Source: a virus (taxonomy: Duplodnaviria > Heunggongvirae > Uroviricota > Caudoviricetes). From it: a DNA stretch of 32,272 nucleotides. The DNA is taken from IMG/VR virus record IMGVR_UViG_2737471827_000002, positions 1 to 32,272 of that record; one strand, written 5' to 3'. Of this stretch, positions 18,513 through 20,710 are shown piece after piece. Position 1 is the first letter of the stretch. Each line of letters starts with the position of its first letter. The notes below the pieces were generated by a model, which was given only the letters and a program-made list of their open reading frames with translations, searched no databases and was not told the origin of the DNA. Made by a program: the position numbers and the translations under genes.

Positions 18513-19574
18513 TCACAAAATTGTATTTGCTGATAACATACTGATTTCCTGAATGGTCTTATTGAACCGTTCTGTCTCAAGCTCAACACCTAATGCCCGA
18601 CGCCCCAGCGCCATTGCTGCTTTTATTGTGGAACCGGATCCCATAAAGAAATCAGCAACCAGATCGCCAGGTCGACTACTGGCATTGATTATTTGCCTGA
18701 GCATATCCGCCGGTTTCTCACACGGATGTTTGCCCGGGTAGAACTGAACGGGTTTATGCATCCAGACATCGGTATAAGGCACGGAGACTGATACGGAGAA
18801 CCAGCGCCGGAGAGATTTAAACTCATCCAGCAATTCAGAATATTTGCGATTCAGTGAATCATAAGATGCCACCAACTGGTGGTGTGGTTGTTCCAGTTGT
18901 TGTTCCTGAAACTTCTCTGCCGCTATACGGGAAAACAGTGCCTGTAACTTCCGGTAGTCAGCCTCATTCGGCAACTGCCACTGACTGGCACCAAACCAGT
19001 GGGAAACCATATTTTTCTTACCTGTGGCTTCGGCAATTTGTTTTGCCGTTATACCCAGTTCGGCACGAGCATCCCTGAAATACGATATCAGCGGTGCCAT
19101 TATGTGCTGTTTGAGTTCCCTTTCTTTTGCTGCATAGCCGTCACTTTTGCCGCGATATGGCCCCTGGTAATGTTCAGCAAACAGAACGCGCTCTGTGGCA
19201 GGAAAATATGCGCGCAGACTTTCTTTATTACACCCATTCCAACGTCCGGACGGCTTCGCCCAGATAATGTGGTTCAGAACATTAAAGCGTTCACGCATCA
19301 TGATTTCGATATCAGATGCCAGACGATGACCGCAGAACAGGTAAAGGCTTCCGGCAGGTTTTAACACCCGCCAGAACTGCGCCAGACACTGATCCAGCCA
19401 TTTCAGGTAATCATCATCTCCCTTCCACTGGTTATCCCAGCCATCTGGCTTCACTTTAAAGTATGGTGGGTCTGTGACTATCAGATCGACAGAGTTTTCC
19501 GGTAAGGTCTGGATAAATTCCAGGCAATCAGCGTTGATTAACTCACAACTGGATATTTTTACAGTATTAGCCAT
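18513..19574 (-). CDS. Orphan DNA methyltransferase (beta-class N6-adenine/N4-cytosine type)
   Basis: 353 aa; DPPY motif near N-terminus and AdoMet-binding FFMGSGST near C-terminus; no adjacent restriction endonuclease gene. Confidence 0.8.
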   Translation of the reverse strand: MANTVKISSCELINADCLEFIQTLPENSVDLIVTDPPYFKVKPDGWDNQWKGDDDYLKWLDQCLAQFWRVLKPAGSLYLFCGHRLASDIEIMMRERFNVLNHIIWAKPSGRWNGCNKESLRAYFPATERVLFAEHYQGPYRGKSDGYAAKERELKQHIMAPLISYFRDARAELGITAKQIAEATGKKNMVSHWFGASQWQLPNEADYRKLQALFSRIAAEKFQEQQLEQPHHQLVASYDSLNRKYSELLDEFKSLRRWFSVSVSVPYTDVWMHKPVQFYPGKHPCEKPADMLRQIINASSRPGDLVADFFMGSGSTIKAAMALGRRALGVELETERFNKTIQEISMLSANTIL

Positions 19575-19724
19575 AGATCAATAAGCGCTTCTCTGATAGG
19601 CTCATACCGCTTTTGCGCAAAGCAGATGGGCCTGAGGTTTGCTTGTGACCCCAACGCATGAGCAGATGGCTGGCAGGTGCCGCTAACACCCACCAGCCGC
19701 CCATTACCACAAATTAAAAAGCCT

Positions 19725-20045
19725 TCACTGCGGAAGGCGTCTGTAACAACCGAACTGATAATCTGCCAGGCCCGCCATAACAAGCTGGGTCAGTATTAAC
19801 TGGCAGCATTCGCGTGAAAGGTAAGTATTCTGCGCAATCTCCCCGACGGTCGCTGGTTCGGTGACGCTTAATTCATTAAACACCACTCTGGCGGTTTCGC
19901 TCATATCCTGCTGTTTTAGCATGTCTTTTTCCCTTTTCTGGTTAACGTGACATACCAATAACTCTTGTCGAAAAAGCCAGCAAGTTGAAAGGCCGGTATT
20001 CGCAACCACCAGCGCATTTAACGTCCTGTACTGCTTTTCAGGCAC
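19725..20045 (-). CDS. Small hypothetical protein, possible HTH (true start probably internal, about 65 aa)
   Basis: ORF track 106 aa; plausible start MLKQQDMSETARVVFNEL... near 19922 after SD-like AAAGGGAAAAAG; C-terminal HTH-like segment. Confidence 0.4.
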   Translation of the reverse strand: MPEKQYRTLNALVVANTGLSTCWLFRQELLVCHVNQKREKDMLKQQDMSETARVVFNELSVTEPATVGEIAQNTYLSRECCQLILTQLVMAGLADYQFGCYRRLPQ

Positions 20046-20146
20046 AAAAAAACCCGCTCATCGGCGGGTTTAAGCTGTGTGGCGTAGTAACCACTCTTAA
20101 CAGGATATTCAACTTTTTACGATCGTAAAGTGTTCGGGGGAAATTT

Positions 20147-20710
20147 TTAAAGTCGCATCAGTCGTTCCACCAGTTGCTCTTTACTGGCAACGATCCAGCC
20201 GCGTTGTTCCAGATAAAATTTGAACCGTTCCAGAGTGCATACCATCGCATCGGCGGGTACTTTTTCCGTGAAGTCGACCTGACCGTGTTTATCGAAGTGG
20301 ATCAGTAATGCGCATCCATCATTTTCGGTGGGGGAGTTTTGTGTTGCTGGTGGCTGTTTCTGGCTGAAATAACAGTCTTCCAGTTTTTCGAATACTTCCC
20401 ACGCCTGATCTGTTTCCAGCATTTTTGCGTGGCGGGCAGCTCCGCGTTCTGTCCATAGGATGAGGAAGCGGGTTTTGGGAGAGATGGGATTTTGTGACTT
20501 ACTTAAAGTAAGTCGCAATTTTTTTAATTCCTCACCCGCTGCTTTAAAAAAGTGCTTTCCTGCGACAAAACGCTCTTTGTTTCTGGTGAAGTTAACCTGG
20601 ATATTCAGAATTTCGGTGCCATAAAGCTGCGCCAAAAGTTCAGTGGTAATAACAGGAATCTGGTTATGGGTGATCGGGGAGAGAGTTTCAACAGAGATTT
20701 GAGTTGTCAT
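20147..20710 (-). CDS. ORF6N/KilA-type domain protein (antirepressor-like), first gene after pR'/tR'
   Basis: 187 aa; N-terminus ITTELLAQLYGTEILNIQVNFTRNKERFVAGKHFF typical of ORF6N-type antirepressor proteins (from memory). Confidence 0.55.
   Translation of the reverse strand: MTTQISVETLSPITHNQIPVITTELLAQLYGTEILNIQVNFTRNKERFVAGKHFFKAAGEELKKLRLTLSKSQNPISPKTRFLILWTERGAARHAKMLETDQAWEVFEKLEDCYFSQKQPPATQNSPTENDGCALLIHFDKHGQVDFTEKVPADAMVCTLERFKFYLEQRGWIVASKEQLVERLMRL

Follow-up and report, generated by a model that had tools for sequence, protein, structure and literature searches.

M.EcoGII is widely used as a tool enzyme, and we know of no native regulation described for it. The C proteins of type II restriction-modification systems are Xre-type HTH dimers on C-boxes, in systems that possess an endonuclease. 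In the immI cassette of P1 and P7 (c4, icd, ant), an antisense RNA is flanked by two copies of its target, the second of which lies beside the ribosome-binding site of the downstream gene, and specificity is set by short loops that differ between relatives. These loop sequences underlie P1/P7 heteroimmunity. M.EcoGII and M.EcoGI are carried by prophages of E. coli O104:H4 C227-11, and M.EcoGII has been characterized as an adenine methyltransferase without sequence specificity and is silent in lysogens; a late-expressed, anti-restriction role was proposed by its discoverers (PMC5778455). In Gifsy-1, the isrK-orf45-anrP locus presents, in order, Q, a promoter, IsrK with its terminator, a C4-like RNA (STnc1160) and a 187-aa ORF6N protein, and the promoter, PisrK, is active (PMC4825925). 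In the late region of Sp5, the distance between PR' and tR' was mapped by dRNA-seq and Term-seq as 258 nt (PMC7547250).

In the window analyzed here, that is, the whole 32,272-nt stretch of the IMG/VR virus record IMGVR_UViG_2737471827_000002, three ORFs on the minus strand (18513-20710) had been described in an initial annotation as a single late-operon cluster. The three ORFs were confirmed at these coordinates, but do not make up such a cluster. Instead, with a probability of about 0.75, the interval between Q and the lysis genes contains two independent cargo modules of known kinds that are neighbors in a Qin-like lambdoid prophage, namely an antirepressor cassette (Module A, 20987-20147) and a methylase late operon (Module B, 20129-18513). 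This reading draws on homologies, RNA family matches, compensatory changes, promoter homology and the fold of the small protein. On this view, what had been flagged is familiar in kind: the methylase would be one more anti-restriction enzyme of the M.EcoGII type, and the antirepressor one more that is controlled by IsrK and C4. On the minus strand, Q lies 5' of the cargo, and about 1 kb of non-coding DNA, followed by the holin gene, lies on its 3' side (Table 1).

Table 1. Features of the Q-to-holin interval, in the direction of transcription.
Feature	Position	Strand	Evidence
Antiterminator Q, 933W/Sp5 type	20992..21387	-	Pfam Phage_antitermQ, E 2.5e-52
Sigma-70 promoter, PisrK equivalent (TTGACC, 18 nt, TATATT)	20958..20987	-	Promoter scan, 10/12 matches
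IsrK-type short leader RNA, a1/b1 targets of C4	20874..20964	-	Rfam isrK and c4-a1b1; terminator scan
C4-type antisense RNA	20764..20848	-	Rfam C4, 65.7 bits, E about 1e-11, exceeds gathering score
Second target copy, 5' of ORF6N gene	20718..20760	-	Read from sequence; Gifsy-1 and VT2-Sakai alignment
ORF6N-domain putative antirepressor, AnrP ortholog	20147..20710	-	Pfam; PHROG; Gifsy-1/VT2-Sakai identity
Putative late promoter pR', 933W/Sp5 type	20095..20129	-	Alignment with Sp5 region just after Q
First intrinsic-terminator-like hairpin, late leader	20050..20071	-	Terminator scan
65-aa winged-helix protein (SfV orf47, phiP27 L23, PHROG 331)	19725..19922	-	Homologs; PHROG; AlphaFold
Hairpin P0, terminator-like, overlapping small ORF stop codon	19721..19738	-	Terminator scan
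Conserved structured 5' leader of methyltransferase	19575..19713	-	Conservation; covariance model R1
Orphan beta-class N6-adenine DNA methyltransferase, M.EcoGII family	18513..19574	-	Pfam; M.EcoGII identity; PADLOC
Non-coding spacer (~1 kb) before holin	17461..18272	-	Terminators 18272-18241, 17947-17924, 17487-17461
STnc100 sRNA	18104-17916	-	Rfam STnc100, 113 bits

Module A possesses the complete order of an immI-like c4 cassette, with a promoter, an a1b1 RNA and its terminator, a C4 RNA, an a2b2 copy and a payload gene. The Rfam matches to isrK, c4-a1b1 and C4 fell in the correct order between Q and the ORF6N gene. The isrK match (66.9 bits, E 2e-12 to 2e-13) exceeded the gathering score, and the c4-a1b1 match (45.5 bits) was slightly under its gathering score of 46.7. 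Specifically, the IsrK-type RNA contains a terminator at 20895-20879 and a b1 loop, UUAGGAAC, at 20926-20919. The loops of the C4-type RNA are b' GUUCCUAA (20793-20786) and a' GGUUUC (20805-20800), and the second target copy comprises b2, again UUAGGAAC (20760-20753), a2 GAAACC (20732-20727) and the Shine-Dalgarno sequence AGAGGG (20723-20718). The C4 loops thereby complement both target copies, b' with b1 and b2 and a' with a2. In Gifsy-1 and VT2-Sakai, the b1, b' and b2 sites read UUGGCGUC, ACGCCAA and UUGGCGUC, whereas all three are altered jointly in the window. The a'/a2 pair is altered jointly in Gifsy-1, where it is GGUGAU/AUCACC rather than GGUUUC/GAAACC. In addition, b1 pairs with b' in the predicted fold of the read-through RNA (z = -3.7), which agrees with the inactive structure of the Gifsy-1 RNA (PMC4825925). 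With a recognition sequence unlike those of Gifsy-1 and Sp5, the cassette would, in P1/P7 terms, have a different antisense immunity specificity, and it could serve as a natural loop-swap experiment.

The payload of the cassette is an ORF6N-type protein, as the initial annotation had proposed. The 187-aa product matches Pfam ORF6N (PF10543) over residues 12-97 (E 6e-20, 71.7 bits against a cut-off of 27.8) and PHROG 2379, 'anti-repressor', over its full length (E 5e-89). It shares 57% identity with Ant of VT2-Sakai and 56% with STM2616/AnrP of Gifsy-1, which is of equal length; residues 1-30 of the two are identical, while the C-terminal half has diverged. By homology, the ORF6N product probably acts as an antirepressor. 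The gene order is that of the Gifsy-1 locus, but the neighboring Q belongs to another family, and the small ORF upstream of the antirepressor gene differs. In Gifsy-1 this ORF has 45 codons, whereas its equivalent here has 27, with its double AUG likewise 12 nt apart, and ends about 50 nt before the ATG of the ORF6N gene. Because the ORF is short and stops early, translational coupling of the Gifsy-1 type may differ in this cassette. The resemblance to P1/P7 immI extends to the Rfam families and to the arrangement of the two target copies; in contrast, the payload is of the ORF6N type and not P1 Ant1/2, the host element is lambdoid, and no icd homolog was found in the cassette.

By analogy with these systems, the promoter of the cassette would produce a short terminated RNA, IsrK, bearing a1/b1, and transcripts that read through would contain the C4-type antisense RNA and the a2/b2 copy just 5' of the ORF6N ribosome-binding site. 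Pairing among these elements may keep the long transcript translationally silent, so that the balance between the short and long RNAs would decide whether the AnrP-like antirepressor is synthesized, which in turn would push the prophage toward induction. The repressor of this prophage (31016-31417), an HTH protein of 133 aa, lacks a peptidase domain, so induction by RecA-stimulated S24 self-cleavage is impossible. The same promoter precedes the homologous cassettes of Gifsy-1 and VT2-Sakai. Since the identical arrangement of promoter, RNAs and gene is found in the nin region of VT2-Sakai, the cassette is a portable unit that brings its own promoter.

Module B begins downstream of the ORF6N gene. 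The Q protein shares 81% identity with Q of Sp5 from E. coli Sakai, and Q21 structures were a distant match. The sequence that follows the ORF6N gene aligns with the -35, the -10 and the initial transcribed region of the Sp5 pR', and the alignment places a predicted -35 of TTTACG at 20129-20124, a -10 of TATCCT at 20107-20102 and a transcription start near 20095. In Sp5, the inferred start lies 256-258 nt from the end of the tR' U-run, consistent with the published distance. Both hexamers of the putative pR' match the consensus at four of six positions, and a simple promoter scan did not list it. In phages with other Q types, the transcribed leader is common only from about the start site onward. 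Conservation between the window and the Sp5/933W late region (PR'-StxS-tR'; PMC7547250) covers the -35, the -10 and the first ~50 transcribed nt, including the first hairpin. This hairpin is also conserved in phiP27, 1720a-02 and SfV, and it is annotated as a terminator in SfV. Beyond it, Sp5 continues with the rest of StxS, tR', tRNAs and stx2, and only a 3' remnant of the methyltransferase gene is present, whereas in the window the methyltransferase gene is intact and is preceded by the small ORF and the leader, and neither tRNA nor stx is present.

A cognate Q and a homologous pR', the marks of a 933W/Sp5-type late operon, thus apply to the small ORF and the methyltransferase gene but not to the ORF6N gene. 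As the pR' homolog lies downstream of the ORF6N gene, the late cargo is limited to the former two, and of the cluster initially described only this part stands. With the map corrected, the antirepressor cassette lies between Q and pR', where its own RNA switch, rather than the late promoter, would govern it. The order of Module B would be pR', the first hairpin, the 65-aa gene, a second hairpin, the ~140-nt leader and the methyltransferase gene. In the lysogen, the stacked terminators would keep the methyltransferase off, and upon induction the Q-modified RNA polymerase would read through them and allow the enzyme to be made.

The first gene of Module B encodes a small protein whose ORF had been called HTH-like. 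The gene itself is real; the same 198-nt gene is annotated by RefSeq in E. coli RM11911, and a search recovered 272 homologs, which their sources call 'TrmB family' or 'DprA-like WH'. Its true start, however, is the ATG at 19922, preceded by an AAGGGA ribosome-binding site, and the 106-aa ORF with a GTG start is not the gene. The product matches PHROG 331 (E 9e-35). Pfam and NCBIfam searches gave winged-helix hints that were all sub-threshold, with no HTH_3 or Xre match in Pfam, and PADLOC returned nothing for this ORF. In an exhaustive HMMER search the protein fell into a narrow family of 58 representatives that is unlinked to larger characterized families. The AlphaFold model (pLDDT 92.5) has an H-H-H-beta-beta topology and matches the winged-helix domains of MarR, IclR and OhrR with TM scores of 0.7-0.8. 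On the strength of this model, the protein can be assigned with confidence as a winged helix, not the Xre-type protein expected of an HTH controller.

Between the small ORF and the methyltransferase gene lies a conserved leader of about 140 nt with five helices, directly upstream of the latter. Helices P1 (19703-19699 with 19631-19627), P2 (19698-19668) and P3 (19664-19657 with 19647-19640) form a three-way junction with invariant junction nucleotides, which is followed by the hairpins P4 (19623-19609) and P5 (19605-19600 with 19586-19581). The leader is conserved in 35 of 37 genus-level loci. The covariance model built on it, R1, gave 71 matches in 85 sources; 63 of these end at the annotated ATG of the methyltransferase gene, another seven end no more than about 16 nt away, and the remaining one, a weak match, lies elsewhere. 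As read from the covariance-model alignment, paired cells make up 91.3%, and changes on both sides occur in 27 of the 34 pairs, values reached by none of 500 shuffles, and slid controls pair at 34-45%. A MAFFT alignment, on which RNAalifold produced a confused structure for these divergent sequences, was replaced by this one. Folded alone, the leader of the window reproduced only P2 of the consensus. At the position of the upstream hairpin P0, most loci have a GC-rich hairpin of variable sequence, whichever gene lies upstream.

No Rfam 15 family matched 19575-19740 at E<=1 in a permissive scan of 17300-21100, a literature search of open-access text found no description of the leader RNA, and term searches of PMC5778455 and PMC11551740 found no mention of it or of the partner small ORF. 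A leader peptide, which could be read at the start of the leader as ATG GGC GGC TGG TGG GTG TTG TAG, was rejected: the ORF has as few as 7 codons in some loci and more than 45 in others, its third codon positions are equally conserved, and its codons co-vary with the 3' arm of P2. Likewise, the invariant GCTGGTGG in the leader was rejected as a sequence kept as a Chi site, as other clades have unrelated, still-pairing sequences at this place. We tentatively propose, at somewhat below even odds, that the leader is an uncatalogued class of cis-regulatory RNA that controls whether a toxic, non-specific adenine methyltransferase of DNA and RNA is translated. It might do so by sensing a ligand such as SAM or SAH, by binding the methyltransferase (autoregulation) or by binding the winged-helix protein. 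If the proposal is true, the leader and the upstream hairpin would explain why such enzymes are silent in lysogens yet switched on in lytic growth. A covarying leader before the whole M.EcoGII family offers a testable handle on how phages may keep the enzyme off until lysis.

In a narrower form of this idea, the winged-helix protein and the leader are a functional pair, and the protein gates the toxic methyltransferase, at the level of translation or of transcription, by binding the leader as RNA or the P4 palindrome as DNA. In phages of the E. coli type the two are tightly linked, the spacer being constant at ~150 nt; the small ORF precedes the methyltransferase gene in 79 of 80 close viral loci. 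Moreover, the leader junctions are highly conserved, and some winged-helix domains bind RNA hairpins, the mRNA-binding domain of SelB being among the fold matches. The small ORF is, however, missing from about 12 of 34 genus-level loci that keep both the methyltransferase gene and the leader, and the leader is unchanged in these loci, which makes such a pairing doubtful.

The 353-aa methyltransferase matches Pfam N6_N4_Mtase over residues 29-338 (E 3e-42). Its DPPY motif occupies residues 34-37, and FFMGSGS follows near the C-terminus, at about 309-315; the resulting order of IV, TRD, I makes it a beta-class enzyme, in agreement with the initial assignment. It is identical to M.EcoGII at 287 of 348 positions (82%) over the full length, as compared with a reference that was machine-read from the supplement PDF of PMC11551740 and contains small errors; the two single-residue gaps in the alignment are both probably reading errors of that reference. 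Both enzymes have ~350 aa and the DPPY-TRD-FxGxG order, and both are encoded by prophages, in the late region that follows Q, with no partner endonuclease (PMC5778455). Identity to the methyltransferase of phage 1720a-02, named as a close homolog in the M.EcoGII paper (PMC5778455), is 83%, and SfV orf48 and phiP27 L24 are further homologs. PADLOC assigned the protein to MTase_II (E 5e-153). The enzyme had been considered an orphan, an adjacent endonuclease being named beforehand as the finding that would refute this; no adjacent ORF resembles an endonuclease, and PADLOC detected no REase nearby.

By this kinship, the enzyme would methylate adenines of progeny DNA during its replication, largely or wholly irrespective of sequence, and the methylation would blunt methylation-sensitive restriction in the next host. 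It is rather unlikely that the enzyme is instead sequence-specific, regulating genes of the phage or the host epigenetically, or inactive. About 18% of residues differ from M.EcoGII, and in the TRD (residues 160-237) identity is ~77% by hand count, so the ~23% divergence there could change the specificity; in addition, homologs of M.EcoGI and M.EcoGII give no signal in lysogen methylomes. On the other hand, the catalytic motifs are all intact, the alignment with M.EcoGII is full-length, and the family has been under enough constraint to retain 73-91% identity across ~15 genera. Silence in the lysogen is also what would be expected of a terminator-insulated late gene, and its place behind pR', together with the terminators on either side, suggests that the methyltransferase here may be silent as well.

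It is similarly improbable that the promoter at 20987-20958 is itself a second Q-responsive late promoter, from which the ORF6N gene is read through and expressed late with the genes downstream. The adjacency of Q and isrK is common to Gifsy-1 and the window, and in Gifsy-1 AnrP raises the expression of antQ, whose product acts globally (PMC4825925). Nevertheless, the Q of Gifsy-1 is of the phage-82 type and that of the window of the 933W type, so the near-identity of the promoters makes a shared Q-binding element unlikely, and the cognate 933W-type pR' is kept downstream. Very improbable is a single late operon in which all three genes are transcribed from a pR' directly after Q, where a good sigma-70 promoter and a terminator do lie, and the small protein acts as a C-like timer of the methyltransferase, since this promoter belongs to a cassette that also occurs in the VT2-Sakai nin region, far from Q, and the pR' homologous to the one mapped in Sp5 comes after the ORF6N gene.

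The controller role that the initial annotation had suggested for the small ORF was rejected together with this timer. Like a C protein, the product is a small protein with a DNA-binding-type fold encoded just upstream of a methyltransferase gene, a position held consistently among close relatives. Unlike C proteins, it is a winged helix and not of the Xre type, it has no endonuclease gene beside it, and it is dispensable for the presence of the methyltransferase, given the loci that have the methyltransferase gene and leader only.

The interval had also been identified as the location at which Stx phages carry stx and tRNA genes, and the gene orders of phiP27 (small ORF, methyltransferase, tRNA, stx2e) and 1720a-02 (Q, small ORF, methyltransferase, stx2) agree with this. 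A tRNA scan of the window found no tRNA gene, and the interval was dropped as a tRNA/stx-carrying site; the tRNA/stx position corresponds to the spacer before the holin gene and is vacant here. The stx cassette of 1720a-02 is flanked by homologs of the end of the methyltransferase gene and of STnc100. The RNA elements of the interval, that is, isrK, C4, STnc100 and the methyltransferase leader, were all absent from the initial annotation. A terminator scan of both strands over 17200-21400 yielded 18 sites where 4.5 were expected; about 10 of the 18 are on the gene strand. The window contains eight Chi sites where 1.5 would be expected by chance, a density about equal to that of the E. coli chromosome.

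All the proteins encoded between the antiterminator gene Q and the lysis genes (18513-20710) belong to known kinds, and the methyltransferase (MTase) family and the antirepressor switch represented there are already characterised elsewhere, so the original finding is of limited interest. The parts deserving experiment are an uncatalogued leader RNA and the specificity-swapped loops of a C4 antisense RNA. The three ORFs of the initial annotation are real: one carries an ORF6N domain, one an N6_N4_Mtase domain, and the small ORF has a RefSeq annotation and homologs. Every gene in this part of the window lies on the minus strand. 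Gene order and the presence of rem, hokD/sok and a Rac-like immunity region (30226-31923) identify the window as a lambdoid prophage of the Qin type. Among complete E. coli genomes, the best matches cover the full interval at 95.6% and occur in only 9 of 5426.

Several other features accompany this region. The sok antitoxin RNA (24628-24803, minus strand, 112 bits) adjoins a hokD-type toxin gene, as in Qin. The YdfR/DUF1327 protein has a C-terminal extension that matches separate PHROGs, and the corresponding gene of E. coli RM11911 is marked incomplete in its annotation. A 272-aa ORF (23204-24022, minus strand) has predicted membrane-like N-terminal segments and lacks a Pfam match at E<=0.01. 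Chi occurs eight times in the window (1.5 expected), six times on the gene strand, and two of the sites fall in conserved leaders, those of the small ORF and the MTase.

Features of the window, with position, strand and remarks
Feature	Position	Strand	Remarks
ParE-family toxin	31636-31923		Rac-like immunity region
HTH_3 repressor candidate, 133 aa	31016-31417	plus	no peptidase domain
YdaS-like Cro	30635-30907		Rac-like immunity region
YdaT	30226-30651		Rac-like immunity region
DUF968/HNH protein	21746-22804	minus	first in high-to-low coordinate order
RusA	21368-21745	minus	after DUF968/HNH protein
Antiterminator Q	20992-21387	minus	after RusA; 18513-20710 comes next
Sigma-70 promoter TTGACC-18 nt-TATATT	20987-20958	minus	5 nt past Q stop codon
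isrK RNA	20951-20874	minus	Rfam, above gathering score
Intrinsic terminator of isrK	20895-20879	minus	
C4 antisense RNA	20848-20764	minus	Rfam, above gathering score
pR'	TTTACG 20129-20124, 16 nt, TATCCT 20107-20102	minus	Sp5 homology
Non-coding DNA, about 1 kb	between 18513-20710 and holin		
Weak second STnc100-like match	18282-18500	minus	29 bits, E 0.001
STnc100 sRNA	18104-17916	minus	Rfam, 113 bits; upstream of holin
S21-type holin	17207-17422	minus	
YdfR/DUF1327 protein, 183 aa	16651-17202	minus	between holin and endolysin
Endolysin	15796-16329	minus	
Chi sites (GCTGGTGG)	15904, 19690, 20006, 20346, 22166, 22572, 24871, 30384		

The position of the late promoter separates the ORF6N gene from its neighbors. 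The Q protein of the window shares 81% identity with that of Sp5, the Stx2a prophage carried by E. coli Sakai, where Q is directly followed by TTTACG-16 nt-TATCAT, then AGAGUGGUUAC and a GC-rich hairpin. In Sp5, the inferred start lies 256-258 nt before the last U of the run that closes the annotated tR' hairpin, and Sy et al. mapped 258 nt from the PR' start to tR' (PMC7547250); the start was matched by distance, the published coordinates being about 141 nt off the RefSeq version. The window shares the initial transcribed sequence and the hairpin (20071-20050), but its pR' sequence is placed downstream of the ORF6N gene rather than after Q. The Q types of phiP27 and 1720a-02 are different; these phages share the transcribed leader from approximately the start site onward but not the sequence upstream of it. 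The arrangement is most simply read as an insertion: the antirepressor cassette, 860 bp long, entered between Q and pR' and took the place of the final ~45 nt of a Q frame that was once longer. On this reading, the ORF6N gene is not the late-operon cargo that all three ORFs had been proposed to be, but the small ORF and the MTase, both downstream of the pR' homolog, are. Terminator-like sites are enriched on both strands of 17200-21400 (18 vs 4.5 ± 2.2 expected), with about ten on the gene strand, and this fits cargo that is insulated in the lysogen and read by Q-modified polymerase alone. The ~125 nt that lead from the first late hairpin to the small ORF (19923-20045, minus strand) are another well-conserved segment, shared by SfV, phiP27, 1720a-02, IHE3034 and E. 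albertii, all with different Q types.

The ORF6N gene is part of an antirepressor cassette of its own, which is under RNA control. Its 187-aa product (20147-20710; ORF6N domain E 6e-20) aligns from end to end with a PHROG labelled anti-repressor and is 56% identical to Gifsy-1 STM2616, which is of equal length and is the 'AnrP' of Hershko-Shalev et al. (PMC4825925). In Gifsy-1, isrK-orf45-anrP is transcribed from the isrK promoter, translation of the read-through mRNA stays off until short IsrK acts on it in trans, and AnrP increases antQ expression and induces the prophage (PMC4825925). In the window, isrK and C4 likewise lie between Q and the ORF6N gene, and a permissive Rfam scan places c4-a1b1 over isrK just under the gathering score. 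The nin region of VT2-Sakai holds an equivalent promoter-RNA-gene unit far from Q, and thus the cassette is a portable module with its own promoter.

Alignment of the three cassette copies from the window, Gifsy-1 and VT2-Sakai allows their antisense contacts to be compared. The isrK loop b1, the single-stranded C4 stretch b' and the site b2 before the gene read UUAGGAAC, GUUCCUAA and UUAGGAAC in the window, whereas they read UUGGCGUC, ACGCCAA and UUGGCGUC in both Gifsy-1 and VT2-Sakai. Similarly, the second pair in the window consists of the C4 loop GGUUUC and GAAACC just 5' of the SD AGAGGG, whereas Gifsy-1 has GGUGAU with AUCACC. Because complementarity is preserved despite change at three sites, the comparison provides direct sequence evidence for functional antisense contacts, and it shows that the window copy has a specificity different from that of Gifsy-1 and VT2-Sakai. 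In the predicted fold of the read-through RNA, b1 is paired with b'. The orf45 equivalent retains two AUGs with a spacing of 12 nt but has just 27 codons and ends ~50 nt before the ORF6N start, so its translational coupling to ORF6N is uncertain. The repressor candidate adjoins YdaS and YdaT homologs and has no peptidase domain, which makes it plausible that the antirepressor acts as a prophage inducer.

The 353-aa MTase (18513-19574; N6_N4_Mtase E 3e-42) has the beta-class motif order, with DPPY near the N-terminus and FxGxG near the C-terminus. DNA searches match it to the 'DNA methylase' genes of SfV (orf48), phiP27 (L24), 1720a-02 and many Stx2 phages, and an identical enzyme is encoded by one IMG/VR contig. 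It is 83% identical to the 1720a-02 enzyme and 82% identical (287/348) to M.EcoGII, the sequence of which was taken from the SUPREM paper supplement and contains a few machine-reading errors. Based on these matches, the membership of METHYLTRANSFERASE in the M.EcoGII family is well supported. Close homologs of M.EcoGII have been named in 1720a-02 and other enterobacterial phages, and the family is very large, prophage-borne, silent in the lysogen and probably counters host restriction (PMC5778455). Across the target-recognition region, residues 160-237 of M.EcoGII (PMC11551740), identity is about 77% by hand count, and the MTase is likely to lack sequence specificity. No solved structure is closer to it than generic beta-class enzymes. 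ORF, domain and defence-system scans found no endonuclease gene. The initial interpretation of the three ORFs is partly right: the MTase is an orphan, probably expressed late and probably directed against restriction.

Downstream of the MTase are strong terminators and STnc100; this sRNA and PasD have been linked to the corresponding part of Stx-type prophages (2026 preprint). In 1720a-02, the homologs of the MTase 3' end and STnc100 are separated by ~1.9 kb (L007 3289-5147) that holds a marker-replaced stx2 cassette, and in phiP27 the MTase is directly followed by tRNAs and stx2e. In contrast, the window has an empty site of 380 bp (18134-18512) at this position, and a tRNA scan found no tRNA gene in the window. 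It is therefore a stx-less version of the Stx2-phage late region. In Sp5, only the last ~30 codons of an M.EcoGII-type MTase follow tR' (L005 6799-6885, corresponding to L125 1018-1066), and this remnant suggests that the Sp5/933W lineage has lost the small ORF and the MTase by deletion.

The small ORF is best read as its 65-aa version, which starts at 19922 with a good ribosome-binding site, in agreement with RefSeq for E. coli RM11911. It belongs to PHROG 331 (no functional label) and has 272 homologs; an exhaustive search of 1.84 billion representatives returned just 58 relatives. Pfam gave sub-threshold matches only (TrmB, Rrf2, DprA_WH), and source databases label the homologs 'TrmB family' or 'DprA-like winged helix'. 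The AlphaFold model is a confident winged helix (pLDDT 92.5) that matches the DNA-binding domains of MarR, OhrR and IclR and the winged helices at the N-terminus of O-methyltransferases; a weaker match is to the mRNA-binding domain of SelB (all fold matches TM 0.66-0.81). The small ORF precedes the MTase in 79 of 80 close viral loci, but the figure falls to about 22 of 34 among genus-level loci, other genes taking its place in the rest. Fold and linkage together suggest a DNA- or RNA-binding-type protein that often accompanies the MTase and is dispensable for its presence. The winged-helix fold and the MTase loci without it rule out membership in the C-protein family, and the proposed role as a C-type controller fails on the same grounds.

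METHYLTRANSFERASE is preceded by a conserved structured leader of five helices, P1-P5 (19575-19713, minus strand). Conservation of this stretch of ~140 nt, which runs up to the MTase ATG, exceeds that of the MTase protein across ~15 enterobacterial genera, whether the small ORF is upstream or absent. A DNA pattern from the leader core occurs in >120 viral contigs, 102 distinct variants are present across all loci compared, and the MTase starts at a fixed distance after the pattern in all except a few frameshifted copies. In most loci, a GC-rich hairpin of freely varying sequence, P0 (19721-19738), comes before the leader. In a more divergent MTase clade, the helices are rebuilt from different sequences. 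For instance, where the window has GGCUGGUGGGUG...CACCUGCCAGCC for P2, one clade has GACUGUAAAGGUG...CACCCUUACAGUC and another has GGCGUACAUGAUG...CAUCUUGCACGCC. In the window, a Chi site forms the P2 5' arm; other clades do not keep it.

A covariance model of the five-helix structure, R1, was built from 24 close sequences and gave 71 matches in 85 sources (460 kb), with a single copy in the window. The annotated MTase start codon is the exact end point of 63 of these, seven end within about 16 nt of it, and one weak match (30.7 bits) is elsewhere. Paired cells make up 91.3% of the leader alignment, compared with 34-45% when partners are slid by 1-3 columns, although pairing is inflated because the alignment was fitted to R1. 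Changes on both sides affect 27 of 34 pairs, and 212 cells carry two-sided changes, as compared with 55 ± 6 in shuffles, none of 500 reaching the observed value. Compensatory changes in P2, P3 and P4 are also visible in the raw sequences; P1 (UGGGC with GCCCA) does not vary, and P5 is the weakest of the five. A search of Rfam gave no matching family for the leader, and no description of it was found in the open-access literature. As read from the sequence, the E. coli-type MTase start lacks a canonical Shine-Dalgarno, and the obvious hypothesis is that the leader is a translational gate on a toxic enzyme.

A further MTase clade with the N-terminus MENI... (L273, L274, L277, L281, L285, L288 and L290) carries a related but shorter leader at ~100 nt before the MTase start, consisting of a P2-like hairpin after GUGAAAUGGAC with the rest absent and no R1 match. 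A mini-ORF, ATG GGC GGC TGG TGG GTG TTG (19704-19681, minus strand), overlaps P1 and the P2 5' arm. It has 7 codons in most genera and ~45 codons in the window, where its stop is 5 nt past the MTase ATG; given this variation in length, the mini-ORF is probably a by-product of the RNA structure.
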